Source: a virus
Virus record (IMG/VR): IMGVR_UViG_3300037515_000591
Coordinates: 7,403-71,402 of that record
Direction: 5' to 3' (one strand)
Length of the DNA stretch: 64,000 nt
The position numbers were made by a program, and so were the translations under genes. This document shows, piece by piece, positions 10,081 through 28,736 of this stretch. The notes under the pieces are model-generated. The model was not told the origin of the DNA. It ran no database searches and saw only the letters and a program-made list of their open reading frames with translations. Position 1 is the first letter of the stretch, and each line of letters begins with the position of its first letter.

Positions 10081-10559
10081 CAGGCAGCCGCCACCAGCGT
10101 TGCACCCGGCGTCAGCGGCACATACGTCGCGTACCACTCCACGACACCGTCAACACTCGAAGCGCCAGCGACCTCGATCTCCCCAGTACTCACAACGAGC
10201 GGGCCAAGCGGAGCGCCGTTGACCGCGAAGTTCGTCTGGTTGTTCGCCGTGTCGTTGGTCTCGATCGCGATACCGATGACGTCACCGGCCAAGGTGTTGG
10301 TGGTGCCCAGGTCGGTGGCAGTGACAATGGTCGTCGTGTCACCCGTGGTGGGATCCACCGCGAGAGCGATCGTGCCGCCGTCCTCCGCGACGACCGTGGT
10401 CACCAGACCCCACAGCGCGGTGATGTACACCTCGCCACCGGCCACCGTGAACACCTGGTAAGTGGCGTCACCACCTGTCGTGAAGTCACTGGTCTTGCCC
10501 TGGACGTAGCGGCCCAGGAGCAGGCTCCGCAGCTCATGACCCTGAATGATCGTGCTCAT
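10080..10559 (-). CDS. hypothetical structural protein
   Basis: 159 aa, beta-rich, in the head module downstream of the capsid gene. Confidence 0.6.
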   Translation of the reverse strand: MSTIIQGHELRSLLLGRYVQGKTSDFTTGGDATYQVFTVAGGEVYITALWGLVTTVVAEDGGTIALAVDPTTGDTTTIVTATDLGTTNTLAGDVIGIAIETNDTANNQTNFAVNGAPLGPLVVSTGEIEVAGASSVDGVVEWYATYVPLTPGATLVAAA

Positions 10560-10561
10560 GT

Positions 10562-10981
10562 TCAGGCCCCCAGGATCGCGAGGTTCGCGGGAGTCCGCTG
10601 CACCGTCAGGTCATGGAACACCGCAGTCACCAGACCAGCCGACGAGGCCGTCACCTTGATGTAGTCCTTCGTGTCCGGAAGCATGCTCCCGGACACGAAG
10701 AACACCACCGTGCCCGACGAGATGGTCACCGCGTTCGACGCCGACTGAGTGGCCGCGACCCAGGCGGCGGTGCCGTCGGTGGCCGTGTTGGTGAACTTGC
10801 GGGTGATGATGTTGCCGGGCGTCGCGAACGATCCGGCGAACGCATCGGAGACGGTGATGGTGAACGTGTCGTTGCCGGTGCAGATGTACGTCACACCGGA
10901 CGCATCCTTCAGCGACAGCGACACCGCGTCCGCGATGGGGACGGCGTTGAAGACTCGTCCGAGGCCTTCCATTCCTGCCAT
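10562..10981 (-). CDS. hypothetical structural protein (possible head decoration)
   Basis: 139 aa, the first gene after the capsid gene and its hairpin. Confidence 0.6.
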   Translation of the reverse strand: MAGMEGLGRVFNAVPIADAVSLSLKDASGVTYICTGNDTFTITVSDAFAGSFATPGNIITRKFTNTATDGTAAWVAATQSASNAVTISSGTVVFFVSGSMLPDTKDYIKVTASSAGLVTAVFHDLTVQRTPANLAILGA

Positions 10982-11024
10982 GGTGTTGCCCTCCTTGAGG
11001 GGGTTGAGTGCCTCTGCGGATTGG

Positions 11025-11056
11025 GCCCGAGCGGGGGTGTTACTGCCCGCCCGGGC
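11025..11056 (-). terminator. stem-loop just downstream of the capsid gene
   Basis: GCCCGaGCGGG ... CCCGCcCGGGC inverted repeat, read directly from the sequence. Confidence 0.45.
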
Positions 11057-11063
11057 TGGCGGG

Positions 11064-12563
11064 TCAGGCTCGGGCGGCCAACTGCACGAACGGCGAAAGC
11101 GGGTCGCTGTTGTTCTGTGGCGTGCACGGGGACTGGAGCCACGGCTGACCGTCGACGCGCTGGATGATGCGGTAGGCGGTCTGGTCGTTCTGGAACTTGA
11201 AGTGCGGCGACGACATCGCCGACATGACCTGCCGGTCGCCGATCAGGTAGAACCCGAAGTCCACAAACGAGATGTCGCCCTTGTCGCCGAGGACACCCGG
11301 TGCCTTCTCGGTGACGACGACGGGGCGGCCGAGGATCGTCATCGGCGGGCCCTGAACGCCGTTGTTCAGCCAGATCGCCGAGCCGCCCGTACCGACGGAC
11401 AGACTCATGGTGGCGAGCTCCGGGAACACGTCCGGGCTCACGACCCACACCGCGCGGTCCAGGCTGCCGGGGAGCATGCGGGCGTACATCTTCACCAGGT
11501 TTTCCCACACCACGGTGTCGGCTGCCTGCCCGGACTCCTTGGCGACCTCGACGATCGCCGTGTTGCCCGCCTCCAGCGCGCCCTGGGGTTCGCCGACACC
11601 ACTGCCCTTGAGGAACGCGATGTCCTCGTAGAAGTTGAGGGCCTCGGGGAAGATCTGGTCGAGGAACGCCTGGAACGAGATGGCGGAGTCGGAGATCAGT
11701 TCGTTGGGGACCTCGGTGTACGCGGTGAGCTTCTTCGCGTCGAGGACGATCCGGGAGAACGCGGCCTGCGACGCGGTGAGCGCTGCGCCCTCTTCGGTCC
11801 AGTAGCCGACGACTCCGCCGTACACCGAGCTGACGTTGCTGGTGGAATCAACTGCCGGGAACGGCACCCGGAGCGTCTCCATCGGGATGACGCGGGCCCG
11901 CTGCCGGACGACGGACTGCTCCAGCGCCACCGCGAGGAGTTCGCTACGGAGGACCTCGGGGATGAGGAACCCGCCCTCCGATGGCACCGTGCTGGAGAAC
12001 GCGTTGCGGACGCGGGTCAGCTTCGCCTGCATGTCCGCAGTCCGGTTCGCGTTGTGCCAGATCGTCTGGAAGTACTCCGCCGAGTTCTTGAACTCGCGGT
12101 CCAGGACCGCACCCATCGCCCGCGGGTTGTGAATGTGGTTCCGCGCACTGCCCGTCTGCACGACGGCCTTCGGGGTCAGGTCGATGCGGTCCACACCGTC
12201 GGGCTGGTTGTCGCGCAGCCAGTTCGCGAGGATCTGCTCCGTCTGCTCCTTGACCTGCGTCGCAATGCTGAGGTCGCGGGCGTGGGTGTTGCGGGCGTAG
12301 TTGGTGATGAACTCGCCGAAGGCTTCCGGCTGCGCGAAGACGCGCTGCATCTTCGCCGAGTCGGTCAGCATCTCCTCCAGCGCGGCCTGGTTGGTGGGGA
12401 TGGTGAGACGGTCGGGGTCCACCCCTCCGGCCGGGGCCGGCGGTTCGGCGATCCGGTTGTACGCCTTGCCGATCTGGCGCGGGTCGAACCCGGCGCGGAG
12501 GATCATGCGGTGGCGCATGCCGGACACGGTGTCGGCGCGCCCCCGGGCGATTGTGGTGTTCAC
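11064..12563 (-). CDS. major capsid protein, HK97 family
   Basis: Typical HK97-fold stretches, for example GGFLIPEVL, LTAYTEVPNELISDS and FYEDIAFLKGSGVGEPQG. The start is GTG 12563 with RBS GGGAGG and a GTGA overlap with the protease stop. Confidence 0.9.
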   Translation of the reverse strand: MNTTIARGRADTVSGMRHRMILRAGFDPRQIGKAYNRIAEPPAPAGGVDPDRLTIPTNQAALEEMLTDSAKMQRVFAQPEAFGEFITNYARNTHARDLSIATQVKEQTEQILANWLRDNQPDGVDRIDLTPKAVVQTGSARNHIHNPRAMGAVLDREFKNSAEYFQTIWHNANRTADMQAKLTRVRNAFSSTVPSEGGFLIPEVLRSELLAVALEQSVVRQRARVIPMETLRVPFPAVDSTSNVSSVYGGVVGYWTEEGAALTASQAAFSRIVLDAKKLTAYTEVPNELISDSAISFQAFLDQIFPEALNFYEDIAFLKGSGVGEPQGALEAGNTAIVEVAKESGQAADTVVWENLVKMYARMLPGSLDRAVWVVSPDVFPELATMSLSVGTGGSAIWLNNGVQGPPMTILGRPVVVTEKAPGVLGDKGDISFVDFGFYLIGDRQVMSAMSSPHFKFQNDQTAYRIIQRVDGQPWLQSPCTPQNNSDPLSPFVQLAARA

Positions 12564-14296
12564 AGTTCTGCCTCCCAAAGGGCACGTCGTACTGCTGATT
12601 GGTCGATCGTTTGGACCGGCTCGGGCGCGGCCGGCTGGGGCGCGGCGGGCTGGGGTGGGGCGGGTGCGTCGTTGGCGACACCGGTCATGACGGCGCGCAG
12701 GTAGTCGGCGACGACTTGCCCGGCGGGCGGCGGCGGTTCGGGCACGACGGCCGCAGCCGGGGTGGGCACGGCCGGGGTGGGGCGTGCGGTCTGCGGGGCG
12801 GCCGGAGCATCGTTGGCGACCCCGGCGAACAGGGACCGGAAGTAGCCGACCGCCACCGTCTGCGGATCCGCCTCAGGCACGACGTCTACAGGCGGCGGCA
12901 CATACGGGACCGGGTCCTGCCGCGGGGCGGGTACGGCCGGTGCGTCACCCGCCACACCCGCCATGAGAGAGCGGAAGTAGCCGGCGGCCACGGTCTGCTC
13001 GTCGGGTTCGGGCACGACGTCCGTGGGCGGCGGCACGTACGGGGCGGCCTGGCGTACGGGCGTGGGCGCGGCGGGTGCATCACCTGCGACACCGGCCATC
13101 AGCGACCGCAGGTGCTCGGGCTGGTAGCCGGGCATCGGGTCGAGCGCGGCGGTTGCGGCGGCACGGAACACGGACGGGTCGAACGCGGCTGCCGTGGGCG
13201 CGTCGCGGGCGCGGTCCTCGCTGCTGTCGCCGTCCGCAAGGTGGGCGCGCAGGTGAGCTTCCACCGCGGCGCGCTGCGCCTCGGGTACGTCGGACTGGGG
13301 GAGGCGTGCGAGCCCGTTGCGGCAGGCGGCCAAGTTGGCGGCGCCCGGGCTACCGTCGCCGTCGACCTCGTGGTGGGGGAACTTGCACGCGCTCTTGGGG
13401 AGTTCGCCGCTCTCGACCTGTTCGGGGTCGTACCAGCCGTACGCCTTCTTCGCGGTGGCGACGGTCATGGGGGCGGGGAGGCGGCGCTCATTCGGGCCCG
13501 CATCCCATGGGGAGTCGACGGTCGCGGTGTGGTGCGTCGGCGACGCAGTGTCGAGCGGTGGTGCGGGAGCGGTCTCGCGGCTGGTGTGCGCGTAGTTGTA
13601 CACCGACAGGTCCCACGCGGCGGCGACCGCCCGGTCGTCGGGCATCTCTTCCATCTGCCGCTCAGGCTTCGCAACCTCGTCCGCGAGCCCGGCCTCAACC
13701 GCCTCATCGGCGAAGAACCAGGTTTCGGCAGCCATGAGGCGGAGCCACTGCTTGACCGTGCCGCCTGCACGCTCGGCGTACACCCCGGCCAGGTTTTCGC
13801 TCTGCCGGTCGAGAAATTCGGCGTACTCGCGGAGTTCAGCCGCTTCGCCGCTGGCGACGCCCTGCGCCATGTGCAGCATCATCTGGCTGTGCGGGGCCAT
13901 GATGATCCGGTCTCCGGCCATGGCGATGACGGAGGCGATCGATGCGGCGAGGCTGTCGACCTGGACGATGACCTTGGCGCGGTGGGAGCGGAGTGCGTTA
14001 TAGCAGGCCAGGCCGTCATAGACCTCTCCGCCAGGGCTGTTGACGTACAGCCTGATCTCCGGCGCATCGATGGCCTTGAGTTCCTCCACAAAGGAGGAGG
14101 CTGAAATTCCCCACGAGCCAATGTCGCCGTAGATGTACATCGAGGCGACGGGTGAGCCGCCTTCGTCGACGGTGTTGGTGATGCGGTACCAGCCCTCGAC
14201 GCCGTCGGGTCCGGGCAGTGCGGGGCGTGCGGCTCGGCTGCGTTCGGCAATCACTTCGGGGGCGGCGGTATTCCACGATCGCCGCGTGTGGCTCAT
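12560..14296 (-). CDS. ClpP-like (S14) prohead protease fused to a repeat-containing scaffold-like C-terminus
   Basis: LYVNSPGGEVYDGLACYNALR...VDSLAASIASVIAMAGD...APHSQMMLH is ClpP-like. The start is moved to ATG 14296 with RBS GGGGAGGG. Confidence 0.85.
   Translation of the reverse strand: MSHTRRSWNTAAPEVIAERSRAARPALPGPDGVEGWYRITNTVDEGGSPVASMYIYGDIGSWGISASSFVEELKAIDAPEIRLYVNSPGGEVYDGLACYNALRSHRAKVIVQVDSLAASIASVIAMAGDRIIMAPHSQMMLHMAQGVASGEAAELREYAEFLDRQSENLAGVYAERAGGTVKQWLRLMAAETWFFADEAVEAGLADEVAKPERQMEEMPDDRAVAAAWDLSVYNYAHTSRETAPAPPLDTASPTHHTATVDSPWDAGPNERRLPAPMTVATAKKAYGWYDPEQVESGELPKSACKFPHHEVDGDGSPGAANLAACRNGLARLPQSDVPEAQRAAVEAHLRAHLADGDSSEDRARDAPTAAAFDPSVFRAAATAALDPMPGYQPEHLRSLMAGVAGDAPAAPTPVRQAAPYVPPPTDVVPEPDEQTVAAGYFRSLMAGVAGDAPAVPAPRQDPVPYVPPPVDVVPEADPQTVAVGYFRSLFAGVANDAPAAPQTARPTPAVPTPAAAVVPEPPPPAGQVVADYLRAVMTGVANDAPAPPQPAAPQPAAPEPVQTIDQSAVRRALWEAEL
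12653..13117 (-). repeat. in-frame tandem repeat, four copies of about 135 nt (45 aa)
   Basis: The peptide units (Y)FRSLMAGVAGDAPA.P.P....PYVPPP.DVVPE.D.QTVA.G recur at track residues about 413, 458, 503 and 550. Confidence 0.8.
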
Positions 14297-14503
14297 TGGG
14301 TTTCGCCCTCCCCGGTGCGGGTTTTCGCATTGTCCAGGCAGGGTCATTGTGCACTATGCGTTGCGGCTTGTATGGCCTCTGACCTGCGATAACGCGGCTT
14401 TACCGTTTCCATATCGCGGGTGTCGCATTTCTTTAACAGTGGGTTTTCTTAATTCCCGTCAGCCGCGTGCATGTTTACGTGTATTCGCGTACCATTCCGG
14501 TGC

Positions 14504-14776
14504 ATGAAGGTAAACACTTCGCAGGGTGATGATGCTGCGCGGGTGGATGAGCTGGCCGCTCGTGTGCGTGCCGGGCAGCTTCCGCCGCCGGAGGAGCGGG
14601 CTCGGATACGGCAGTCGGCTCATGTGACGTTGGAGCACTTCGCACGGGTGCTGCGGGTCAGCGTGATGACGGTCAGCCGGTGGGAGCGCGGGGAGACGGA
14701 ACCGGGGCTGGATCAGCGGGCGGCGTACGCGCGACTGCTGCGGGAAGTCGCCGCCGCCACGGAGGGGGAGGCCTGA
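14504..14776 (+). CDS. XRE-family HTH protein
   Basis: HVTLEHFARVLRVSVMTVSRWERGETEP is an HTH motif. This is the first gene of the plus-strand block. The start is uncertain (14471 or 14504). Confidence 0.65.
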   Translation: MKVNTSQGDDAARVDELAARVRAGQLPPPEERARIRQSAHVTLEHFARVLRVSVMTVSRWERGETEPGLDQRAAYARLLREVAAATEGEA

Positions 14777-14778
14777 CT

Positions 14779-15186
14779 GTGGAGCCAAAATTCGTGATGA
14801 AGCGAGCCTGCTTCTCGACAGAGCGCAGGGCTTTGGACAGCGGAAGGACCGTCCGAGACCGAAGTCTGGGAATGATCGCGATCTACACACCGGTCCGCGT
14901 CAAGCCCCGTTACTGGACCAGCGCAACACTCTCGGGCTCAGTCATCCACATCGCCACCGGTCGCGGCATCCTCACTCAAGGCACCGTGGCCACCCGAGGA
15001 ATGATCACGGTGGAGCCCTACTGCAACGGGCATCTCGAATGGCCCCGCTCGCTCTCGTCTCCAGCGGACTTCCCCGAGAGACGCCTGTGCGGAATGTGCC
15101 TTGAGCGGGCGCACAACACTGCGCCTGGCAGCCTCACTCGGCCCGTTTCGCCACGGACGATCACCGTGCACGTCGTGACGACCTGA
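14779..15186 (+). CDS. hypothetical protein
   Basis: GTG 14779 lies after GGGGGAGG. Cys pairs CNGH...CGMC are present. Confidence 0.5.
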   Translation: MEPKFVMKRACFSTERRALDSGRTVRDRSLGMIAIYTPVRVKPRYWTSATLSGSVIHIATGRGILTQGTVATRGMITVEPYCNGHLEWPRSLSSPADFPERRLCGMCLERAHNTAPGSLTRPVSPRTITVHVVTT

Positions 15187-15200
15187 CTGGAGCCCGCCCC

Positions 15201-15404
15201 GTGAGTGCCCCGTTGAACCTGACCGCCGAGCAACTCCGCACGATCGCCGCAGCCCTCGACGAACTCACCGAAATCACGAAGCTGCGCGAGGTGTCGTTCA
15301 CGCCTTCCGGCTTCCTCGAAATCGGACTTGCCGACAACACGCTGAGCGTGACGCGGGACAGCGAGACCGGCGCGTACGTCATCGACGACCGCAACGGCGA
15401 CTAA
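15201..15404 (+). CDS. hypothetical protein
   Basis: 67 aa ORF with coding-like composition. Confidence 0.55.
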   Translation: MSAPLNLTAEQLRTIAAALDELTEITKLREVSFTPSGFLEIGLADNTLSVTRDSETGAYVIDDRNGD

Positions 15405-15414
15405 GGAGAAACCC

Positions 15415-15720
15415 GTGAGCACCTGTCCCGCCGAACCCCCCGGCCCCCACGACTTCACCGTCGAAGCCTGCCCCCACTGCGACACCTTCCAGTGGCCCAG
15501 CCGCACAGACCAGCATGTCGCTACCGTCCACGCCGACCTGCCGCCCTGCACAGCCCGCCTCGACAACGAGTACGGCTCGTACACGTGCATCCTCCGCGCC
15601 GGGCACCGGATAGGACACGGCCAGTACGGCGACTACCACGTCAGCGTCATCGGGCCGAACGGGCGCACCGTGTGGAACGACACCGCCGACGGCGCCACCC
15701 CGCACAAGGAGCAGTCGTGA
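15415..15720 (+). CDS. hypothetical protein with C2H2-like zinc motif
   Basis: Contains CPHCDTFQWPSRTDQHVATVH, with RBS AAGGAG upstream. Confidence 0.6.
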   Translation: MSTCPAEPPGPHDFTVEACPHCDTFQWPSRTDQHVATVHADLPPCTARLDNEYGSYTCILRAGHRIGHGQYGDYHVSVIGPNGRTVWNDTADGATPHKEQS

Positions 15721-16121
15721 GCAGCAACTACAGCGTCCTCTGCCTCTCCCACGACCCCGCCATCATCGTCCACGACCCCGGCTTCAACCGGCCCGAGCAG
15801 GCCGAAGCCGCCATCGCTGACGGCGTCACCGGGCACGAGAACTGCGACCTGATGATCGGCCGCTACTCGTACCCGCTCGTCGAACTCGGCTGCCCGCCCG
15901 CCCGTGATGGCCTCGGCCCTTCCTTCAGGAGGTGCTACCACGGAGAAACCGTGTGGGTGTGCAGGGAATGGCTATGGATCCTGGCCGCGGCCTACCAATC
16001 GTCTGATCCGGACGTACGGGCGACTACGCAAGCAAACCGCAGCCCGCGGTGTCTGCCGTGGGAGCGGCTACGGCGGTTGCGGAACGAACTCGACTTCACG
16101 ATCAAGGAGGCCGCCCCGTGA
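15717..16121 (+). CDS. hypothetical protein
   Basis: The GTG start overlaps the upstream stop (GTGA). Contains the motif VTGHENC. Confidence 0.55.
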   Translation: MSSNYSVLCLSHDPAIIVHDPGFNRPEQAEAAIADGVTGHENCDLMIGRYSYPLVELGCPPARDGLGPSFRRCYHGETVWVCREWLWILAAAYQSSDPDVRATTQANRSPRCLPWERLRRLRNELDFTIKEAAP

Positions 16122-16513
16122 GCGCCGTCCACATCGTTGTCGTCGTCGTCGCGGTGGCTGTCATCGGCCTCTGTACGTGGGCTGCTCCCCGCCGCTACCA
16201 CCTCCAGCGGTCGAAGTCCCAGGACCATGCGCCCCGAGTGCTCACTATCCCTGAGCCGATCACGGAGGCCGAGTACGAGGCGATCAAGACGCGCTGGCTG
16301 GCCCTGTACGGCAGCAACACGAACGCGCACCTCGTGACGCCGCTCTGCACGGAGCACGACGTCAACGAGTGGGCGTGCGTCACCAACCCGCGCACCGGGC
16401 GTATGGAGCACTTCAAGCGGCCGTGGCCCGGTTGCCGAATCGACTTCACAGGAAGCTCGCGCAACGGCCTGGTGGACCCACTGCCTCACACCACCCCCGA
16501 GGAGACCCCGTGA
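16118..16513 (+). CDS. hypothetical membrane-anchored protein
   Basis: GTGA overlap start. The N-terminus VSAVHIVVVVVAVAVIGLCTW is a hydrophobic helix. Confidence 0.55.
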   Translation: MSAVHIVVVVVAVAVIGLCTWAAPRRYHLQRSKSQDHAPRVLTIPEPITEAEYEAIKTRWLALYGSNTNAHLVTPLCTEHDVNEWACVTNPRTGRMEHFKRPWPGCRIDFTGSSRNGLVDPLPHTTPEETP

Positions 16514-16755
16514 ACGTCTTCGAGACCGTCTACGTCATCGGCGCCGCGATCTCCGCAGTCATCCTCGCCATCGACATCACCATCGACGAGGCCGACTGGA
16601 GCAGGCGCATGGTCTCGTTCCCGGATCCTGGCGAGCCGCTTCGGATTGAAACCGAACACGTCGTCAGCGGCATCCTGATGGGGCTTGTGACTGCGTTCGT
16701 CTGGCCGGTTGGGGTTCCGGCGTACTTCCTCGCGTTCAGGACCCGGCGTGGGTGA
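16510..16755 (+). CDS. small two-helix membrane protein
   Basis: GTGA overlap start. Hydrophobic stretches VIGAAISAVILAI and GILMGLVTAFVWPVGVPAYFLAF. Confidence 0.55.
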   Translation: MNVFETVYVIGAAISAVILAIDITIDEADWSRRMVSFPDPGEPLRIETEHVVSGILMGLVTAFVWPVGVPAYFLAFRTRRG

Positions 16756-16939
16756 CCGTCTGCGTCCGGTGCGCCTGTTCGGCCGCGACTACTACTGGCA
16801 CGCCGGGCCCGGCCATCCGCTGCAACTGCTGCCCGCCGTCCCGTGGCCCGAGCTGCCCAAGGTGCAGCCCGAGGATCTGTACTCGGAGTTGGTCCGCCTG
16901 TACGCCCGCCCACTCCCACAACCCGAGGAGATCCCTTGA
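16748..16939 (+). CDS. hypothetical protein
   Basis: I preferred this frame over the Cys/Pro-rich alternative at 16752-16946. The start is GTG 16748. Confidence 0.4.
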   Translation: MGDRLRPVRLFGRDYYWHAGPGHPLQLLPAVPWPELPKVQPEDLYSELVRLYARPLPQPEEIP

Positions 16940-17409
16940 CGGCTGACAGCCCGCGACGCGTGATCACGCTGAACTGTTTGACCTGCGGCGAGACCGGCAT
17001 CACCGTATGGGCCGCACACGCCAGCGCCTGCCCCGGCCCGTCCCACGGCGGCGGGCCAGCCGAGACCATCGAAGGCGTCCGTCACCTCGAAGCCCGCCTA
17101 TGGGAGAACAACGACGCTCGGGAGATGCCCGTCTCCGCCGTGTGCCACTCGATCGCTAACGATCTGCGGGACGTCCTCGCAGACGACGATCACCGGCCTA
17201 CCGCCCCCGACCTGACCACCGGCACCCGAGGTGAGTACAACGAGTGGGTCATCGAGACGAAGCTCGGGCGCAGGCTCGCTGTGTGTGTCGACCGCAGCCC
17301 GTATCGGGAGGACGCACGCCGGCGGTTGGAGGAGCTACGGGCCGAGCATCCGGGGATGGTGTTCCGAGTGGTCCGGGAGACGAGTACGCGTACTGAGGAG
17401 GATTGGTGA
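16936..17409 (+). CDS. hypothetical protein
   Basis: The TTG start overlaps the upstream stop. Contains LNCLTCGETG...ACPGPSHGG. Confidence 0.5.
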   Translation: MTADSPRRVITLNCLTCGETGITVWAAHASACPGPSHGGGPAETIEGVRHLEARLWENNDAREMPVSAVCHSIANDLRDVLADDDHRPTAPDLTTGTRGEYNEWVIETKLGRRLAVCVDRSPYREDARRRLEELRAEHPGMVFRVVRETSTRTEEDW

Positions 17410-18023
17410 TGCCTGACCTGCATGGCTGGCTGAGTCAACAGATCGACGCGGTGGAAGCCGTAGCGCGGGCCGCAGCCTCCGACGGAACGCCCGACTGGTA
17501 CACCAAGAACCATTTCGCTGTAGCCGACGGGGACGGCGATGCGGTCGCGTACAACGAGGGAAACCCCACCCCGGACCAGGCCCGACACATTGCCCTGCAC
17601 GACCCTGCGGGCGTGCTGCGCCGTTGTGCCGCTGACCGGAAGATTCTCGCCGAGCACCGGCCCCACGGCGGCAAGTGGGAGCCGTACGCCTGCGAGGGGT
17701 GCGGCATGGACGGCGGGGACTGCGCCGACTGGATGGTTGAGCACGTCAACGACTGCCCGACGCTGCTCGCGCTCGCGGAGGGGTACGGGCTCACCGGCGA
17801 GCAGCGCGCCGTACTGGACCGGCCCGAGCCTGAGCGGCCTGCACCGTCCGGGCCCAGCCTTCTCCCTGACGGGCTCGCCGAGGCCATGTTCGGCAACCTG
17901 TACGCCTTCGCACTCGGTGTACGGGAGGTTGAGCGGAGCCCGGAGGTGAAGGCGATGGAGATCCTGAACCCGGAGTTGAAGAAGATCCCCGGCTACCTGC
18001 CCACCACCGAGGAGCAGCAGTGA
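17409..18023 (+). CDS. DUF6221-like protein
   Basis: The segment ARHIALHDPAGVLRRCAADRKILAEH matches my memory of the DUF6221 family seen in actinophages. Confidence 0.65.
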   Translation: MPDLHGWLSQQIDAVEAVARAAASDGTPDWYTKNHFAVADGDGDAVAYNEGNPTPDQARHIALHDPAGVLRRCAADRKILAEHRPHGGKWEPYACEGCGMDGGDCADWMVEHVNDCPTLLALAEGYGLTGEQRAVLDRPEPERPAPSGPSLLPDGLAEAMFGNLYAFALGVREVERSPEVKAMEILNPELKKIPGYLPTTEEQQ

Positions 18024-18337
18024 GGCGCCTGATCAGCAACAAGACTCTGTGGCCTCTGCACGTCGCTCAGGGCCGCGCCGAGGAGATCTCCGCGTGGGTG
18101 GCTGCGAACGGCATCGAACCCGACGACGTGTCCACCAACCATGATCTGATCGTTGAGGACGTGGCAGGCGTTCTGTCGATCCGGTGCACGGTGTACCTGC
18201 GGACGCTGGACGGCTCCAAGTACGTGGATGGCGCGTTGGATGACGCGGCGGTGGCGGAACGGCGTGTGCCGCTGCTGGTGCTGCCGCCGGATTCCTGGCC
18301 GACGTGGGCGCTCGCCGACGAAAGGCCACAGCCGTGA
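18020..18337 (+). CDS. hypothetical protein
   Basis: GTGA overlap start, 105 aa. Confidence 0.55.
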   Translation: MRRLISNKTLWPLHVAQGRAEEISAWVAANGIEPDDVSTNHDLIVEDVAGVLSIRCTVYLRTLDGSKYVDGALDDAAVAERRVPLLVLPPDSWPTWALADERPQP

Positions 18338-18588
18338 GGCCACTGCAATGCGTGATCGGCCGCCACGCATGGACCGGCTGGCGTAAGCACGAGAAGGGAT
18401 GCGGCGACCACGGCTGCGACCGCTACCTACGCCGCTGTACTCGGTGCCCGAGGTGGCAGCGCAAGTTCCCAGGAGGGCGACCGCGCGAGTTCGAGTGCCG
18501 CTGCCTCGCCTTCGCCTGCTGCTCGGACGAATGCCGCCAAGGCCGATGCCCATCCATCCCAGCCGAGCTCAGAGAGGACACCCGATGA
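18334..18588 (+). CDS. Cys-rich small protein
   Basis: GTGA overlap start. Contains CGDHGCDRYLRRCTRCPRW...CRCLAFACCSDEC. Confidence 0.5.
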   Translation: MRPLQCVIGRHAWTGWRKHEKGCGDHGCDRYLRRCTRCPRWQRKFPGGRPREFECRCLAFACCSDECRQGRCPSIPAELREDTR

Positions 18589-18905
18589 GCCAACCACTCG
18601 ACGAACAGCAGATGCGAGATGCCTGGGACACGGCTGTACAGGACTGCCTGACCGGGCACGAGAACTGCTCGTACGGCGGCATGACCCCACAGACCGGCTA
18701 CTGGCTCCAAGCCGAGGGCTGCCAACTCAACCACGGTGAGAGGTGCGTGTGGTGCGGCGGCGAGGCGGAGACGGGGTTCTCCAACTGGGCCGACGACGGG
18801 TTTTCGATCTACCGGGTTCCTGCGTGTGAGGGGTGCGCGCAGCAGTGGGTGCGGTTCGATGTTCGGTGGGTGCGGAGCATCGCGGACGAGGAGCCCACCC
18901 CGTGA
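18585..18905 (+). CDS. hypothetical protein
   Basis: ATGA overlap start. Contains the motif LTGHENC and CVWCGG...CEGC. Confidence 0.55.
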   Translation: MSQPLDEQQMRDAWDTAVQDCLTGHENCSYGGMTPQTGYWLQAEGCQLNHGERCVWCGGEAETGFSNWADDGFSIYRVPACEGCAQQWVRFDVRWVRSIADEEPTP

Positions 18906-19336
18906 GCAACTACGCGTACGCCAGCGTCCCAGGCAACGACTCTGCGATCGTCGGCCCCGAAACCGTCAACGGCACCGGACAGGTCTACCTCCACGCCGAC
19001 GACCTCTGCTTCCTCAGCAACGAGGAAGCCCGCGAACTCGGGCGCGCGCTGATCGAGGCCGCCGACTACGCGAAGGCCGTGCAGAACGAGAAGGAGAACT
19101 GGCCGGGCGGCGGACCGCCCAAGTCTGTACTCGACGTCGCGTGGACCGATCCGCAGTGGCGTTCCGCTGGCCCGGACGGCGACCCCGACACCGCGTGCAG
19201 CGCCTCTCACCGCCCAGACCCCCGCAGCACCAGCCCCCGGAGCGTTGCCCGTTGCACGCGGGGCTGCGGCCACTGCGGGGCGCACGCCGGGGCCGACTTC
19301 GACGGAAGGTCGTACCAGTGGGAGGACACGCGATGA
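18902..19336 (+). CDS. hypothetical protein
   Basis: GTGA overlap start, 144 aa. Confidence 0.5.
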   Translation: MSNYAYASVPGNDSAIVGPETVNGTGQVYLHADDLCFLSNEEARELGRALIEAADYAKAVQNEKENWPGGGPPKSVLDVAWTDPQWRSAGPDGDPDTACSASHRPDPRSTSPRSVARCTRGCGHCGAHAGADFDGRSYQWEDTR

Positions 19337-19452
19337 CCGTCACGCTGCGACTCGTCGTCGAGACGTGCTGCGCCTGCCCCAACCAGTGGGACGCCTGGAC
19401 CGTCGACGGCCAATACCTTGCATGTCAACTATGTTCGCGAATAATGTTGTGA
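19333..19452 (+). pseudogene. 39-codon ORF, possibly a truncated gene
   Basis: MTVTLRLVVETCCACPNQWDAWTVDGQYL then runs into an AT-rich segment and stops. Confidence 0.35.
19418..19446 (+). promoter_or_regulatory. near-consensus sigma70-type promoter TTGCAT-17 nt-ATAATG
   Basis: Read directly: ttgcat at 19418-19423, a 17 nt spacer, and ataatg at 19441-19446. The GTG of the next gene is at 19465. Confidence 0.5.
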
Positions 19453-19464
19453 CACAATGGAACT

Positions 19465-19662
19465 GTGACCGACTACAGCCAGCGACTCAAGAGGGCCCGC
19501 GCCGCCTATGACAGAGCGCGCTCCGCCTTGTTTGCAGAGATCAAGGAAGCGCTCGAAGCCGAAGACGGACCAACCGTCTCCCAGATCGCACGCGACGCCG
19601 ATTTCACCCGCGAGTACATCGCCAAGATTCGCGATGGCCAGGGACCGAAGGAGACGCGATGA
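19465..19662 (+). CDS. small DNA-binding-like protein
   Basis: 65 aa. TVSQIARDADFTREYIAKIRDG is HTH-like. The stop overlaps the HNH gene start. Confidence 0.55.
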   Translation: MTDYSQRLKRARAAYDRARSALFAEIKEALEAEDGPTVSQIARDADFTREYIAKIRDGQGPKETR

Positions 19663-20222
19663 GCGGACGTGTCTGCGCAGTAGACGCATGCGAAAGGCCG
19701 CGCCATCGCCGCGACTGGTGCGTTATGCACCACAGCCGCTGGAAGCGGACGGGGAACCCGCTTGGCGCGCGAACCAGCCCCGACGTGCGGTTCTGGGCGA
19801 AGGTCGACAAGCGCGGTCCGATGTCGGAGCACCGCCCGGACCTCGGTGCATGCTGGGTGTGGACTGGCGGCAAGGATCGCCTCGGGTATGGGCACTTTTG
19901 GCTGGACCGCAGCCACGTGCTCGCCCATCGGTTCGCATACGAACTGCTGGTGGGCCCAATCGCGGGGAGTCTAGAGATGGACCACTTGTGCCGGGTTAGG
20001 CACTGCGTTAACCCGCACCACCTCGAACAGGTAACTCACCGGGTGAACACTCTGCGCGGCACGTGCCCTTCAGCGCAGGCGGCACGGGTGACCCACTGCC
20101 CACAAGGGCACGCGTACAACGAGGAGAACACCCGCATCTATCAGGGGCGACGGTACTGCCGTGAGTGCAGCCGTGAAGCGAGCCGCCGCTACAAGGCCTC
20201 TAAGCGGGCGGAGCGGGAGTGA
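19659..20222 (+). CDS. HNH endonuclease
   Basis: Motif LAHRFAYELLVGPI...LEMDHLCRVRHCVNPHHLEQVTHRVN, followed by a zinc-ribbon tail. Confidence 0.8.
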   Translation: MSGRVCAVDACERPRHRRDWCVMHHSRWKRTGNPLGARTSPDVRFWAKVDKRGPMSEHRPDLGACWVWTGGKDRLGYGHFWLDRSHVLAHRFAYELLVGPIAGSLEMDHLCRVRHCVNPHHLEQVTHRVNTLRGTCPSAQAARVTHCPQGHAYNEENTRIYQGRRYCRECSREASRRYKASKRAERE

Positions 20223-20286
20223 TCACGCTGACGGAGTTCCTACGCCGGACGGGCCTGCGACTCGCACCAGACGCGGTGGTGAGCTG

Positions 20287-20625
20287 ATGAGTACCGAGTG
20301 GATGACGCCCGAGCAGATCCGGCAACACCGCGCCGCCGAGATCATGGAAGGCCCGCTCGGCCAAGCCATCTACGACGTCATCATCTGGACACGGAAGCAA
20401 TGGCCACCCATGCGGTCCGATGACGAACTGTGGCTCAACCCCACCGACCACGGCGCCACCGTGCTGATCGGCGGCCGGGTGCTCGGCTACGAAGTGTGCG
20501 CCTCCGAACAGGTGCCGCCCGGCAAGGCGCTGATCTACTGCAAGGCCCTCAGCGCGTACGTGGGCGACGGGCAGATGCCGGACGGCCGGTACATGCTGGT
20601 GCGACTCCCGGAGATCACGCTGTGA
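20287..20625 (+). CDS. hypothetical protein
   Basis: Internal ATG at 20287, 112 aa. Confidence 0.55.
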   Translation: MSTEWMTPEQIRQHRAAEIMEGPLGQAIYDVIIWTRKQWPPMRSDDELWLNPTDHGATVLIGGRVLGYEVCASEQVPPGKALIYCKALSAYVGDGQMPDGRYMLVRLPEITL

Positions 20626-20924
20626 GCGACCGCATTCCACTCGACCCCGACCAGGCCATCGCCTTCGACAAGGCGACAGAGAACCGCCGCGAATACATCC
20701 GAGCGGAAAGACTCGACCAGCTGGCCGACGGTGGCGAGTCCGTGCACTACCCGGGCTGCCCTGAATGCGGCGTGCCGGCGAAACACGTCGTGTGGTCCAC
20801 GTACGACCAGGGTCCGGGCGGTGTGCTGGAGATCGATTTGGGTACGTGCGGGCATCGGTTCACCGTGAGCCCGGTACCAGCACGCTTCGACCCAGACGGC
20901 TTCTGGTGGCACTCGGAAGACTGA
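20622..20924 (+). CDS. hypothetical zinc-ribbon protein
   Basis: GTGA overlap start. Contains YPGCPECG...GTCGH. Confidence 0.55.
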   Translation: MSDRIPLDPDQAIAFDKATENRREYIRAERLDQLADGGESVHYPGCPECGVPAKHVVWSTYDQGPGGVLEIDLGTCGHRFTVSPVPARFDPDGFWWHSED

Positions 20925-20933
20925 CGACCGCGC

Positions 20934-22988
20934 TCACTCCCAGCGGGCCACGAACGTGCCCCTGCACCGCACGCCGCCCTCGCACCGCAGATAGCCGCCC
21001 GCACCATACGCAGCCCGCACCGCGTCCAAGTCGTCGAACTCCGTGCCGTCGATCTCAGAGCACGGGTCACACACCCGGCTGTCGTTCTTCTCGCTCGCGA
21101 AATACCGGGCAGTCGGCGCAGCGGCCAACGTCGCCACCCGGCCCGCGTTCTGCGCCCGATGCAACGCACCCCCAAGCTGGTCACGCCGGAACCAATTCTT
21201 CAACCCCTTCAGGAACCGGGTGACCTTGCCCGCCACACCCTCACCGTCCGCACCCGGCGTCAGCAGACGCAACGCCTCACGCCCCGCAGACCCGGCAAGA
21301 TCAGCAGCCAGCAGAGCAGCCGTCGCCGCGGCGATCTCCACCAACTCCGACCCGAACGCGTTCGTCAACGACCGGCTCAAACGCGGCGGCTTCACCTTCA
21401 CACCCTGCTCGGCAGCCTCCGCCACCATCTGCGCGGCAGCAGCCTTCGCCATGTCGGCGAGCGCACCCCGCAGCACCTTCGCCGCCACATCCGAGTCCAC
21501 ACTCAGATCAGCGAGCGCCTCAGTATCACCCGCATCCACCGCGGTCTCGATCTGCGCGGCGAGCGCCTCAACCTGCGCCTCCGCGACCGGCTCCCACGCC
21601 TCCAACAGCCCAGCCAGCGCCTCCTCGAACTGGACCCGCACCCGCTCCAACGCATCGTCATCAGCCTGCGCACGCACCCGACCGTGCTCCAACACCCGGT
21701 TGTACGACGGCTGCCCGGCAGGCAACGCGAACGGCACATGGTGATGCAAGTCCAGACGGGCCGCCGGCGCGGGCACAACCGGAGCCTGCTGAGGCGCCCG
21801 AGCAGGGGCCGGCGCCCGGTACCCCAGATCCGGCAAGCCCAAATACTCCGACGCCAACCGAGGATCCGCGCCCCCATCCACCAGCGTCTTCCACGCCACC
21901 GTCTTCGACTCCGCCTCCTTCACCTCCAACTCCCGGTCCGTCGGAGTCGGATCCACAAAGTCGAACTCCAGGGCACGCGCCGCATCCTTGCCGTACAGCG
22001 GTAGCAACTGGTGGTTCAGCGCGCCGCGGATCGCCCGCAGATCCGGGACGACCAGCCAGCGGGAGAACATGACATCGGCGGCTTCCATGTTGGCGCGGTT
22101 CGCGTCATCAACTGTGCCGAGCATCGGCTTGGGGAAGCCGAGCCCTTCGCGGATGACCTCGCGGGACGCCGCGTTCGACTCGACGAACTGCATGTCGCGC
22201 TGCGTGTACTTGCGGTCCTTCCACACCCCGTGCTCCAGGAACGCGACACGGTGGGCGTTGGCAACACCCTTGTGCTGCTCGTCCCAGCGGGCCTGCAACT
22301 GGTCCCACTCGGGGTCGGAGAGGACGGAGGGGAGTTCGATGATCCCGCCCGGCTCCGCGCTGTTCATGAAGAAGTTCCGCTGCCATTCGGCCGCGAACTT
22401 GTTCGAGTCGATCTCGGCGAGCAGCGGCTGAATCGGCGAGATCCCCCGGTACGGATCCCTCGGGTGCGGCGTACGAATGAAGATCACGTCTTCCAGACGC
22501 AACGCCACCTCCTCACCCCCCGGCCCCGTGTACATGTACCCCGACAGGAACTTCGTGGGATGCGGCACCGGCTGGATACGGTCCGGGCGCACATTCCACA
22601 TCTCCAGCGGCATCGTCGACCGGGCGCTATTCCGGGCGATCACCCACCACGTCTCCCCCGTCAAACCCTTGTGCTGCTGCCCCGCTTCCACGAAAATCTC
22701 GCGGGTGAAGAACGGGTTCGGCTTATTCCACAGGTCGAGCGCGGGATGAACCGCAACTTCCTGCCGGTCCTCCTTCAGCCCAGACTTGGCCTTGCGGTAC
22801 AGATGCCACTCCACCCCGGCCACAGCCTTCGACCAGCGGCTGACGATCGCATGGACGGTGCCCACCGTCTCCATCGCCCGCATCTGCGCCTCAGCACCGC
22901 TGGGTGCCCGCCACGGAATCGACAGCCCGCCACGGGCCGACACGTACGGCACCGGCGTCTTATTCCTCAGGGCACGTAGAGACCTCAC
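20934..22988 (-). CDS. portal protein fused to a MuF-like minor head domain
   Basis: The N-terminal two thirds are portal-like. The C-terminus ...FASEKNDSRVCDPCSEIDG...YLRCEGGVRCRGTF is MuF-like. The start is GTG 22988 with RBS GGAGAAGGGGA. Confidence 0.8.
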   Translation of the reverse strand: MRSLRALRNKTPVPYVSARGGLSIPWRAPSGAEAQMRAMETVGTVHAIVSRWSKAVAGVEWHLYRKAKSGLKEDRQEVAVHPALDLWNKPNPFFTREIFVEAGQQHKGLTGETWWVIARNSARSTMPLEMWNVRPDRIQPVPHPTKFLSGYMYTGPGGEEVALRLEDVIFIRTPHPRDPYRGISPIQPLLAEIDSNKFAAEWQRNFFMNSAEPGGIIELPSVLSDPEWDQLQARWDEQHKGVANAHRVAFLEHGVWKDRKYTQRDMQFVESNAASREVIREGLGFPKPMLGTVDDANRANMEAADVMFSRWLVVPDLRAIRGALNHQLLPLYGKDAARALEFDFVDPTPTDRELEVKEAESKTVAWKTLVDGGADPRLASEYLGLPDLGYRAPAPARAPQQAPVVPAPAARLDLHHHVPFALPAGQPSYNRVLEHGRVRAQADDDALERVRVQFEEALAGLLEAWEPVAEAQVEALAAQIETAVDAGDTEALADLSVDSDVAAKVLRGALADMAKAAAAQMVAEAAEQGVKVKPPRLSRSLTNAFGSELVEIAAATAALLAADLAGSAGREALRLLTPGADGEGVAGKVTRFLKGLKNWFRRDQLGGALHRAQNAGRVATLAAAPTARYFASEKNDSRVCDPCSEIDGTEFDDLDAVRAAYGAGGYLRCEGGVRCRGTFVARWE

Positions 22989-23209: not shown

Positions 23210-23360
23210 GCCGGCCTCCCAAATCGGTTCGACTACCTGGCATTGTCCACGCACCCGCGCTACCGGGGCTAGCGGCGGGCGATCACAGCCAACGCACCTA
23301 GGCGTAGCGCACGACATAGAAAGCCAGCAATAGAGTGTCAGCAGTTGATGGAATCGCCTG

Positions 23361-23996
23361 GTGAATCCACCAGTTCAGGTTGTGTACAAGGGCGTTACGT
23401 ACAAGCGGAATCCCAACAGCGATGACTGGCCCAAGCGCGTGTATTACCAGGCGCCTCGCGGCAGCGGACGCGGATACCTGCACCGCGACGTCTTCACCGA
23501 CGCCAATGGTCCGATCCCGGACGGCATGCACGTCCATCACCGAGACCACGACCCGTTCAACAACGACCCGTCGAATCTGACGCTCCTCACCCCGAAGCAG
23601 CACCGCCAAGAGCACAGCAAGAAGTTCGACGAAGCACGCATGAAGATCTTCAGGGAGACCACTCTCGCAGCTGCGGCGAAATGGCATGGAAGCGAAGAAG
23701 GCCGCGCTTGGCATCGGGAGCACGGCCGCAAGACCTGGGAGGGGCGCGAGACGAGCACCTTCACATGCCCTGAGTGTGGGGAGGAACACCAGGGGCACTT
23801 CCTGGCGCGCACCGGCCCTGAACGGTACTGCTCAGGGCGTTGCAGGCAGCGAGCGGAATGGCGAACGAAGAAGTACTGGGAAGATGCCACCTGCCCCATG
23901 TGCTCGGCAGCGTTCAAGCGACAGCGGGGACGTAGTGAGACTTGCTCGCGCAGTTGCGGGGCAAAGCTCAATTGGCAGCGGCGTGCGTCCTCATAG
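23361..23996 (+). CDS. HNH endonuclease (antisense to the late operon)
   Basis: Motif MHVHHRDHDPFNNDPSNLTLLTPKQHRQEH plus C-terminal CxxC pairs. It converges on the large terminase with a 6 nt overlap. Confidence 0.8.
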   Translation: MNPPVQVVYKGVTYKRNPNSDDWPKRVYYQAPRGSGRGYLHRDVFTDANGPIPDGMHVHHRDHDPFNNDPSNLTLLTPKQHRQEHSKKFDEARMKIFRETTLAAAAKWHGSEEGRAWHREHGRKTWEGRETSTFTCPECGEEHQGHFLARTGPERYCSGRCRQRAEWRTKKYWEDATCPMCSAAFKRQRGRSETCSRSCGAKLNWQRRASS

Positions 23997-25436
23997 CCAA
24001 CGGACCCTGGTCCGGGGACCGACAAAATAGGCCAAAAGCAACGCATCTGCGTTATCCGGGCTTCGGCCGATTCGCTTCTTCGTCTCATCCTTCGGCTCCA
24101 CCACCGTCCGCCCCGCGCTGTCCGTCGTGTACTTCGGCGCCGTCAACTGCGACACCAACCGCTCCCGATCCTTCTCCTCCAGCCCCGACATGTCCCACGC
24201 CAGATCCTCCGACAACTGCCGGCCCACCTCCCACCACAACTGCGACCGCAGATTCTTGAACCGGCCCGGATTCGACGACGCCTCCGACACGTTCACCCCC
24301 ACCACCTGTGCCCGGTGCAAGCTCTGCGACTGCTTCTCCCGCAGTGAGCCGACCACGCCCCACCCGATCCCGATCGCATCCACCTTCACGATCGCGGCCT
24401 GCGACTGGTTGATCGCCTCCACGATCCGGGCCACAGACCTCACCGGATCCCGCTCACGGAACCGCCACTCCCGGCCCACCACCACACCACGCCGCTCACG
24501 AATCACCGTCTCGTCACCGCCAGCACCCATATCGATCCCGAGCTCCACCGGCGTGAGCTGACCTGGCGGCCACGGGATATCGCGCGGCCGGCAGCAGGCA
24601 CGGACTTTCGACAGGCGCACCACCCCGTCCTCCGCGTCCGACGGGAAATCCCCGAGGACCTTGCTGATGTAGGTGGGCGACTCCTCCCCGTACTCCAGCC
24701 GCATCTCCTCGACGTAAGCGTGGGAGACGAGCATCTCCCGCAGCTCGTCCGGGACTTCCTCGCCCGTGAAGTTGGGGGTGTCGAACGCCGAGATCTTGAT
24801 GGTGTTCCAGCGTCCACTCCCGCAGACGCGAGCGAACTCAGTCCCCGGGTCGTCCGGATTGCCGACAGCGAGAATGCGGCAGTGCTCGCCCGTGGCGATC
24901 GCGCGCGCAGCGGTCCAGAACTGCTTGTTCACGCCGCACGCTTCATCCAAGATCACAAGCACGTACTTCGCGTGGATGCCCTGGAAGGCATGCGGGTTGT
25001 AGTCGGACGGTTTGCGGCCGAAAGCGATCAGCCGCTTCCCCAGCTTCCAGTCCGTCTCATTGATCCGCCCCAGAAACGGACGGCCCCGCGCCTCGGCCTT
25101 CGTGAACGCCCCGTTGATCTCAGACCACAGGATCGCCTTCACCTGATCCCCGGTCGGCGCAGTCGTCACCACCCGCGCCTCACCCGGCGGATGAATGTCC
25201 AGCCACCACGCCACCAACTGCGCAGCCAAGAAGCTCTTGCCGACACCGTGGCAGGACTGCACGGCCGTCTGCCGGTGGTCGCGCACCGACTCCGCAATCT
25301 GGATCTGCTTCGACCACAGATGCGTGCCCAGCTTCTCCCGCGCCCACAAGCCCGGGTCGTCGACGTACTGCTCCGCGACAGCAGCCTCATCCGCCTGATC
25401 CTCCAGGCGACCTGCGGCAAGCGTGATCGCGTCCAC
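23991..25436 (-). CDS. terminase large subunit
   Basis: Walker A-like CHGVGKS, VLVILDEA, and a C-terminal nuclease-like region. 481 aa. Confidence 0.9.
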   Translation of the reverse strand: MDAITLAAGRLEDQADEAAVAEQYVDDPGLWAREKLGTHLWSKQIQIAESVRDHRQTAVQSCHGVGKSFLAAQLVAWWLDIHPPGEARVVTTAPTGDQVKAILWSEINGAFTKAEARGRPFLGRINETDWKLGKRLIAFGRKPSDYNPHAFQGIHAKYVLVILDEACGVNKQFWTAARAIATGEHCRILAVGNPDDPGTEFARVCGSGRWNTIKISAFDTPNFTGEEVPDELREMLVSHAYVEEMRLEYGEESPTYISKVLGDFPSDAEDGVVRLSKVRACCRPRDIPWPPGQLTPVELGIDMGAGGDETVIRERRGVVVGREWRFRERDPVRSVARIVEAINQSQAAIVKVDAIGIGWGVVGSLREKQSQSLHRAQVVGVNVSEASSNPGRFKNLRSQLWWEVGRQLSEDLAWDMSGLEEKDRERLVSQLTAPKYTTDSAGRTVVEPKDETKKRIGRSPDNADALLLAYFVGPRTRVRWL

Positions 25437-27969: not shown

Positions 27970-28289
27970 GCGAGGCAGTCACCTGGGTCGCCCAGCAGCT
28001 CACTGCGGCAGGATTCACCCCACTGCCGAGCCTTCACCCGTCCGAGTACTTCTCCGTGACGGGCTTCGCTGTCGAGGATGCCAGCGACCCGGACGCTGCC
28101 CGCGTGACGGTCACTGCACGGTTCACTGGCCAGGATCAGTACAAGCAGTGGGGTGAGGCGCGGCGGCTGGCCGGCAGGTTGATGGATGTGCTTCAGCCGC
28201 TGGGCGTCGGGTTCGAGGAGATCAAGGGCCGTGAGCCGAACTGCGCTTTCGACGCCTACCCGCCCGACAGCGAGGATGCGACCGCATGA
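27966..28289 (+). CDS. hypothetical protein
   Basis: ATGA overlap start, 107 aa. Confidence 0.6.
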   Translation: MSEAVTWVAQQLTAAGFTPLPSLHPSEYFSVTGFAVEDASDPDAARVTVTARFTGQDQYKQWGEARRLAGRLMDVLQPLGVGFEEIKGREPNCAFDAYPPDSEDATA

Positions 28290-28717: not shown

Positions 28718-28736
28718 GCAGCGAGGAGACGAGCAC

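Follow-up and report, generated by a model that had tools for sequence, protein, structure and literature searches.

In tailed phages, few genes are linked as tightly as those for the portal, protease and capsid. Here, we analyzed a 64,000-nucleotide stretch of viral DNA (the window; positions 7,403 to 71,402 of IMG/VR record IMGVR_UViG_3300037515_000591), in which a block of genes on the opposite strand (14297-20933; hereafter, the island) lies between the portal gene and the prohead protease gene. The island is real, antisense and located at a fixed site; its content is variable and mosaic, and its XRE gene and control region are conserved and portable. With a probability of about 0.7, we consider it to be a self-contained, XRE-regulated accessory operon in a lineage of temperate Streptomyces siphophages whose portal/protease junction is a recombination hotspot.

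Morons, a concept of Hendrix and Juhala, are extra, independently transcribed pieces of DNA between genes that are adjacent in relatives, and are found in temperate phages of the lambdoid and HK97-like kind. The island is similar, being DNA between genes adjacent in relatives of a temperate phage. However, it is an operon of 19 open reading frames (ORFs) rather than one or two genes, a dedicated XRE gene leads it, and neither a composition shift nor a terminator was found. P2/P4-like prophages reportedly carry hotspots of variable accessory and defence genes, as Rousset et al. are said to have described in 2022. The portal/protease site shares with them the fixed position, the conserved structural-gene flanks and a cargo that varies between relatives, but the cargo has no known defence match and the site lies inside the head-assembly trio, not at a module boundary.

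The immI region of P22 (mnt, arc, ant) is a regulatory unit that lies inside the late operon, has divergent promoters and encodes a repressor of its own. The island is likewise a small regulatory unit with its own regulator within the morphogenetic genes of a temperate phage, but it carries far more cargo, shows no homology to immI and has no antirepressor match (Ant- and KilAC-type proteins were sought in Pfam and PHROGs). Homing-endonuclease insertions are resembled by the island gene isl17 and by a second HNH_3 gene at 23361-23996, both present or absent between conserved genes; however, they account for just ~1.5 kb, and the remaining island is not endonuclease-related. The closest isolated phage, Streptomyces phage Dagobah (MT711977), has a homologous head module (portal 47%, capsid 54% at the amino acid (aa) level), but it lacks an island, and its genes for portal, Clp protease and capsid follow one another directly with overlapping ends.

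The portal/protease junction in the window and in related loci

The window is high-GC DNA (~67%), and nearly all of its genes are on the minus strand. The following features define the locus:
11064-12563: major capsid protein (Pfam Phage_capsid, 1e-49)
12560-14296, minus strand: prohead protease, ClpP/S14-like (Pfam CLP_protease, 2.5e-30)
14297-14503: divergent control region of 207 bp, conserved among island-bearing relatives
14504-20924, plus strand: the 19 island ORFs
20934-22988, minus strand: portal protein (Pfam Phage_portal, 8.4e-55) with a C-terminal extension of ~230 aa that is weakly MuF-like
23991-25436: terminase large subunit (weak Pfam match)

The portal, the ClpP/S14 protease and the HK97-fold capsid of an HK97-type head module were all matched in Pfam. 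They are not contiguous and co-oriented, because 6637 bp of antisense genes part the portal from the protease; the protease and capsid genes are still contiguous. A preliminary description of the window had claimed such a split by an antisense block, and the Pfam matches of both flanks and the 19 plus-strand ORFs between them confirm it.

We compared the junction in 39 related loci (cited below by L numbers), of which 31 came from a portal scan of IMG/VR and eight from a scan of one genome per species. Seven of these eight were from Streptomyces genomes, two of them within large chromosomal contigs. According to tblastn synteny maps, the junction holds antisense genes in 22 loci and no island in 16; one locus was unscored. 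The DNA between portal and protease is thus, as in a moron, placed between genes that are adjacent in relatives (16/39 loci). Antisense inserts in the relatives range from 930 bp (a mini-insert found in three loci) to 6.0 kb and complete islands from 2.0 to 6.0 kb, so that the window island, with 6,637 bp, is the largest. Gene calls from JGI and Logan gave a 17-gene island of 6.3 kb in L041 and a nine-gene island in L042, both with the architecture of the window. Nearly all called island ORFs were antisense to portal.

The preliminary description had also raised an inversion, an illegitimate recombination or a misassembly. An artefact or inversion private to the window sequence can be dismissed, because the junctions, the orientation and the control region recur in more than 20 independent contigs, isolate genomes included. 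The comparison of synteny showed the arrangement to be lineage-wide, which lowers the uniqueness of the window's island, and did not bear out that its genes are ordinary early lytic ones. Of the accessory (moron or defence) hotspot proposed earlier, the autonomous accessory hotspot stands, the junction being either empty or filled with 0.9-6.6 kb of differing antisense genes; the defence part was not supported by a PADLOC search described below.

The 136 island ORFs of the cargo were grouped into 52 families, of which 30 are singletons and most have no function in Pfam or PHROGs; the order of the families is roughly colinear. Almost all complete islands have an XRE gene adjoining the protease, and a DUF6221 gene was found in 14 loci. 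Between L041 and the window, several island genes were 90-100% identical at the aa level, against 67% for portal and 49% for XRE, and therefore island segments have been swapped by recombination. An unrelated insert type, consisting of a lipoprotein gene on the antisense strand, a gene on the sense strand or both, was found at the junction in L018-20 and L027, which indicates that the site itself attracts insertions. In the portal tree, island-bearing phages are distributed over several clades, and most island-less phages fall in one clade.

Some further observations concern the junction. The whole insert of L018-20 is the lipoprotein gene plus one small sense-strand gene, with a significant hairpin behind the portal stop (z = −2.3). 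Small antisense lipoproteins with a lipobox (LTACG) lie right after portal in L018 (6284-6718), L024 (4317-4628) and L016 (12346-12768). A contig of 5675 bp, L047 (JGI 3300037518), consists only of 15 co-oriented island-type genes and reaches neither flank, and islands larger than that of the window may therefore exist.

In 10 island-less loci, portal and ClpP protease (with its repeat-rich tail) form one ORF of ~1160 aa: L036 (5211-8705), L009 (8378-11860), L007, L011, L012, L013, L021, L025, L038 and L040. The in-frame linker reads ...W(D/E)T-TEEAS-MGRTRR..., with GGAGGAG just before the protease ATG. In island-bearing phages, the portal stop comes directly after ...WE, and the island is thus located exactly at the domain boundary that is bridged in the sister phages. 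No description of a portal-protease fusion was found in the literature searched. In Streptomyces alboflavus NRRL B-2373 (L038, 3499-8613), and likewise in L021, the portal C-terminus is interrupted by an intein-like insert, which extends the fused frame to 1704 aa. This insert begins C/LAPEVLVTT, ends GVLVHN/C and splits the MuF-like portal motif C(D/T)PC; in L038 it contains an antisense ORF (5629-6582, 317 aa) that is Cys-rich and has a DUF559/Vsr-like 'VVEADGDYWH' motif.

The portal of the window probably starts at GTG 22988, since the 35 residues before the first ATG are conserved in L038. The preliminary description had called it a portal-MuF protein. The portal part is correct, and the MuF part is weakly supported: Phage_Mu_F gave E = 0.012 and 16.8 bits, below the Pfam cut-off of 29.6, and the last 50 residues matched phrog_595 (3.7e-9). 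The protease starts at ATG 14296 behind the Shine-Dalgarno (SD) sequence GGGGAGGG, and both are kept in relatives. It consists of a ClpP/S14-like N-terminal part of ~250 aa and a repeat-rich, scaffold-like C-terminal part of ~330 aa. The latter half (12563-13534, minus strand) has four repeats of about YFRSLMAGVAGDAPA with proline-rich spacers between them; it had no match in Pfam or PHROG searches and may be a built-in scaffold.

Control region and XRE regulator

The GC content of the control region is 0.54 (14300-14499), compared with ~0.67 around it, in agreement with the low-GC divergent region of ~200 bp noticed before. We aligned it over 12 loci, to which L041, L042 and L044 were added later. 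The elements considered are:
14344-14357: candidate operator, a 14 bp near-palindrome TCATTGTGCACTAT with core CATTGTGCACTATG
14379-14406, plus strand: candidate promoter facing the island, CTGACC-N16-TACCGT
14490-14495, plus strand: -10-like hexamer TACCAT, 8 nucleotides (nt) before the XRE ATG
14504-14776, plus strand: isl01, first island gene, XRE-family helix-turn-helix (HTH) regulator of 90 aa (HTH_3 PF01381, 2.4e-7, above cut-off; phrog_2104)

The lead position of an XRE HTH gene, claimed earlier, is confirmed by the HTH_3 match. XRE homologues (47-98% aa identity) adjoin the protease in every complete XRE-bearing island, and the family is narrow (34 matches, each with at least 57% identity). 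Ten of 11 complete-island relatives have a single copy of the 11-nt core ATTGTGCACTA per locus, located 50-60 nt 5' of the protease ATG; in L002 the palindrome core is a one-base variant. The palindrome and the conserved blocks are present in L015 despite the lack of an XRE homologue there. No further close copy of the 14 bp palindrome was found in the 64-kb window.

When both strands of the alignment were considered, CTGACC-N16-TACCGT was the sole conserved promoter candidate. Its -35 element is conserved in 11/11 aligned loci and its -10 element, TANNNT, in 8/11. Ahead of the XRE ATG, TANNNT is kept in 14/14 aligned sequences at a distance of 8 nt, and no SD sequence precedes 14504, which suggests that the XRE transcript may be leaderless. 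A conserved RNA structure was sought in the XRE leader and not found (−2.5 kcal/mol), and Rfam gave no match over 13.5-24.5 kb. Neither the alignment nor the scan contained a conserved sigma-70-like promoter facing the protease. The earlier claim that the late genes need at least two promoters is thus not borne out, and antiterminated late transcription that reads through the island would be an alternative to a second late promoter.

At the other end, the stop of the last island gene is 9 bp from the portal stop (convergent gene ends), and no hairpin or terminator was found at this junction. As for a moron's own promoter and terminator, then, a conserved promoter candidate was seen and a terminator or hairpin was not. 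With the stops 9 bp apart and no hairpin between them, island and late transcription must collide. The island is on the strand of the repressor-like gene, opposite to all lytic genes.

The genes of the window mark the phage as temperate. It has a serine integrase (large serine recombinase) at 58775-60316 and a divergent XRE pair that resembles an immunity switch (57846-58295, plus strand; 57365-57589, minus strand), and relatives are integrated in Streptomyces chromosomes. The temperate lifestyle implied in the preliminary description is thus supported. RNA-seq data are available for the Samy prophage of S. ambofaciens, which was rejected as a relative: it is unrelated and phiC31-like, and its att repeat and tRNAs are absent here.

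These data bear on a different explanation, in which the island is an ordinary early-lytic (host-takeover) operon inside the head module that the main repressor keeps off in the lysogen and that fires on infection or induction. We regard this as possible, although on balance unlikely. A 13/15 match to CTGACCTGCGATAAC at 57749, in the immunity intergenic region, would suit it. The immunity-type divergent region (57590-57845) also has a perfect palindrome, ACCTGCGTTAATGCAGGT, at 57752-57769, of which a version with two mismatches is located in the island control region (14382-14399); this resemblance is not significant. The shared motif is not significant either: its local alignment score was 24 against a null mean of 16.7 and maximum of 27 (multiple testing), and the palindrome pattern gave 8 matches against 4.1 expected. 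An operator common to the two regions was accordingly rejected. Moreover, CTGACCTG is invariant though the XRE proteins diverge to 47% identity, which is more in line with a promoter element than with an operator specific to immunity. The dedicated regulator of the island also argues against the early-lytic explanation. In its favor, the genes are small, translationally coupled and without assigned function, as in actinophage early regions, and some of the families are on the sense strand in the pre-terminase regions of relatives.

The XRE module is not confined to the portal/protease site. In L046, an XRE gene and a partly similar control region head a three-gene antisense cassette in the terminase/portal gap (9592-11522), which shows the module to be portable inside the head region. 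L046 is a more distant relative, and the divergent partner of its XRE cassette is a 76-aa gene. L044 has an unrelated gene, also encoding 76 aa, between the XRE gene and the ClpP gene.

A bolder proposal, which we hold to be quite doubtful, makes the XRE-led cassette a portable regulatory lock in addition to a carrier of cargo. It would suppress leaky portal and terminase expression in lysogens while its palindrome gates the downstream protease, capsid and tail genes, and its loss in one clade would have welded portal and protease into the ~1160 aa polyprotein. If true, head-on, terminator-less transcription in the lysogen would curb leaky expression of portal and terminase, and it would depend on the island whether two of the core head proteins arise as separate products or as a single chain.

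Island genes and their possible roles

Of the 19 island ORFs, 18 are credible and one (14797-15186) is doubtful. Most are preceded by an SD sequence and have starts overlapping the preceding stops, GC at third codon positions (GC3) is 0.72-0.90, and 16/19 have same-position homologues in independent contigs. GC content along the island (0.64-0.73) is similar to that of the flanks; it dips only in the control region and ahead of isl16 (0.585 at 19400-19599). Pfam and PHROGs annotated four ORFs (XRE HTH, DUF6221, small HTH and HNH), and one more, a 39-aa peptide, matched an unannotated PHROG. The features that follow isl01 are listed below:
14777-15200, plus strand: window-specific insert of 424 bp with the doubtful ORF isl02 (14797-15186)
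15201-15404, plus strand: isl03, 67 aa, no function assigned; homologues in at least six islands
15415-15720, plus strand: isl04, 101 aa, Cys/His-rich; 91-98% aa identity in L003 and L041
15717-16121, plus strand: isl05, 134 aa, invariant Cys/His/Asp residues; 167 homologues
16118-16513, plus strand: isl06, 131 aa, N-terminal transmembrane segment in the translation; 96% aa identity in L041
16510-16755, plus strand: isl07, 81 aa, two hydrophobic segments in the translation; 100% aa identity in L041
16748-16939, plus strand: isl08, 63 aa; homologues in L003, L008, L015, L028, L041 and L042
16960-17409, plus strand: isl09, 149 aa, CxxC N-terminus and conserved C-terminal domain of 70 aa; family F02, 14 members in 11 loci
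17409-18023, plus strand: isl10, DUF6221 protein, 204 aa, the commonest island gene (Pfam DUF6221, 3.3e-15; 14 loci)
18020-18337, plus strand: isl11, 105 aa; homologues in L014, L033, L034, L041 and L042
18304-18588, plus strand: isl12, 94 aa, Cys-rich; C-terminal part kept in L005, L008, L010, L014, L022, L034, L035 and L041
18585-18905, plus strand: isl13, 106 aa, Cys-rich, TGHENC motif in common with isl05; 85% aa identity in L022
18902-19336, plus strand: isl14, 144 aa; homologues in L006, L024 and L035
19333-19452, plus strand: isl15, Cys-rich peptide of 39 aa (phrog_16837, 7e-5); 68-74% aa identity in eight loci
19465-19662, plus strand: isl16, small HTH protein, first half of an HTH+HNH cassette (phrog_686, 4.7e-5)
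19659-20222, plus strand: isl17, HNH endonuclease, 187 aa (HNH_3, 1.2e-9; phrog_826, 4.9e-51)
20287-20625, plus strand: isl18, 112 aa; 81-90% aa identity in L022, L030, L037 and L041
20622-20924, plus strand: isl19, last island gene, 100 aa, CPEC...C.H motif; 87-97% aa identity in L002, L004, L033 and L041
23361-23996, plus strand: second antisense HNH endonuclease, in the gap between terminase large subunit and portal (HNH_3, 1e-14; phrog_15471, 3e-32)

The gene content expected from the preliminary description was recovered: the DUF6221-like protein and the HTH and HNH pair by their profile matches, and the two small membrane proteins (16118-16513, 16510-16755) and the Cys-rich proteins in the translations. 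The ORF isl02 is doubtful because it combines an atypical GC by codon position with the lack of a homologue, and because L028, in which the XRE gene directly adjoins the isl03 homologue, lacks the stretch that contains it.

The pair isl16 and isl17 is specific to the window, yet both match profile families. No homologue of isl16 was found in related islands, and relatives of isl17 in other loci are on the sense strand, solely upstream of terminase. Window-specific insertions such as this pair and the HNH gene at 23361-23996 are typical of homing endonucleases. Both isl17 and the gene at 23361-23996 combine an HNH_3 domain with presence or absence between conserved neighbors; the segment that carries the latter (23299-23990) is missing from L002 and L003 and found in L004. 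It is likely that isl17 is a homing endonuclease, with putative cleavage and homing activities, and the HTH+HNH pair would then be a selfish passenger of the island.

It could be argued from such elements that the whole island is DNA piled up around selfish elements at an insertion-tolerant site, with no benefit for the phage. The two window-specific HNH insertions, the 424 bp insert of doubtful coding capacity and the many singleton families are in line with this idea. However, the ORFs are intact with high GC3 and coupled starts, families are kept at 50-100% aa identity over many loci, and the regulator and control region are conserved. We thus consider this explanation very unlikely.

Searches for protein function gave little. 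The match of isl10 to DUF6221 (PF19730) had 57.3 bits at a cut-off of 27.6. The DUF6221 family, which has an invariant Cys motif, comprises 357 homologues, from Streptomyces genomes where the source is named and otherwise from metagenomes. Its AlphaFold2 (AF2) model was mediocre (pLDDT 69) and had no PDB fold match, and tblastn of the protein against isolated phages gave no match. The 167 homologues of isl05 have the same kind of origin, Streptomyces genomes where named and otherwise metagenomes; isl05 has no Pfam domain, and its invariant residues are C9, S11, H12, H40, C43, D44, C59 and H75. The AF2 model of isl05 was confident (pLDDT 84, pTM 0.78), yet no structural match to this predicted fold was found in PDB or BFVD. 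The isl05 of L047 differs from that of the window solely at the start codon. PDB sequence searches with six island proteins gave no match, near and distant searches of the window DNA against isolated phages found nothing but 80 bp of HNH, and exact look-ups of the window proteins found none on record.

We also examined whether the island might serve prophage-expressed defence or superinfection exclusion, as a cluster of morons that guards the lysogen. Its antisense position in a temperate phage, its own regulator and the membrane proteins in the window island would be in accord with this. At the same site, relatives have lipobox lipoproteins (F16, F17, F40), a Dam methylase beside a possible nuclease and a Thg1-like enzyme, and the site behaves as the variable hotspots of P2-like prophages are said to do. 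On the other hand, PADLOC on 56 representative island proteins recovered no known defence system but only an orphan methyltransferase, a homing endonuclease and matches near E = 4e-4. Pfam and PHROG searches of the same 56 proteins found no defence or anti-defence family; they recovered DUF6221, HTH, HNH, Dam methylase, a PnuC-like protein and unannotated PHROGs. The composition is also not shifted. We therefore regard a defence island as rather unlikely. It differs from the early-lytic explanation in timing and benefit alone, and the two are inseparable by sequence.

Two gene sets in relatives may be mentioned here. A Thg1-like gene (PF04446, 260 aa), of a family of tRNA 5'-end repair enzymes, is found in L042 (11136-11918) and L043 (2193-2975), and closes the island of the Streptomyces sp. 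NBC_00024-like prophage L042. In L003 (15457-16304), F26 (143 aa, D...EAK motif), possibly a PD-(D/E)XK nuclease by its motif, adjoins F27 (Dam methylase, PF05869, 1e-13), and the two may form a small restriction-modification pair. Within the window, another antisense block with ~6 plus-strand genes lies upstream of the packaging genes (27415-29631). The last gene of this block (29233-29631) has a homologue in the L029 island, and both antisense blocks therefore use a common gene pool.

Expression and significance

Taken as an XRE-regulated accessory operon, the island may work as follows. Host RNA polymerase would start at a conserved control-region promoter, with CTGACC-N16-TACCGT and/or leaderless initiation at the XRE ATG as the candidates. 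The XRE protein would bind the unique 14 bp palindrome and thus autoregulate the operon. Transcription of the operon would run head-on into the portal gene end without a terminator. Because of this geometry, the island would be expressed while late transcription is off (in the lysogen and/or in early infection), and late transcription would silence it. The small membrane proteins, the zinc-binding and DUF6221 proteins and the other orphans that make up the cargo would be accessory factors that act on the host or on competing phages.

Several points weigh against this explanation. The candidate -35 element has 4/6 consensus matches, and a strict consensus scan found neither promoter nor terminator. 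The palindrome is a candidate operator only, and its binding by the XRE protein, like the timing of expression in the lysogen or early lytic phase, is an inference. None of the cargo proteins has an assigned function, and neither PADLOC nor Pfam and PHROGs placed the representatives in a defence system or family. The island GC (~0.66-0.69) is like that of the flanks, whereas a moron would deviate in composition. Finally, the occurrence of some island families on the sense strand among the pre-terminase genes of relatives suits an ordinary early-gene pool.

Insertions and morons in structural operons and variable prophage hotspots are already known. What is new here is the portal/protease position, the size of the island, the XRE control module, which is both dedicated and portable, and the contrast with the fused genes of the sister phages. 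The lineage of Streptomyces prophages studied here tolerates up to 6.6 kb of backward genes between portal and protease, and its sister phages fuse both. The locus provides a defined, conserved control region with a dedicated regulator, and a collection of over 50 families of orphan genes that are restricted to Streptomyces prophages. It is also a natural experiment on late-gene expression that faces convergent transcription. Should the cargo have an effect on phage resistance or on the physiology of the host, the locus would be relevant to Streptomyces strain engineering and to the discovery of defence and counter-defence genes.

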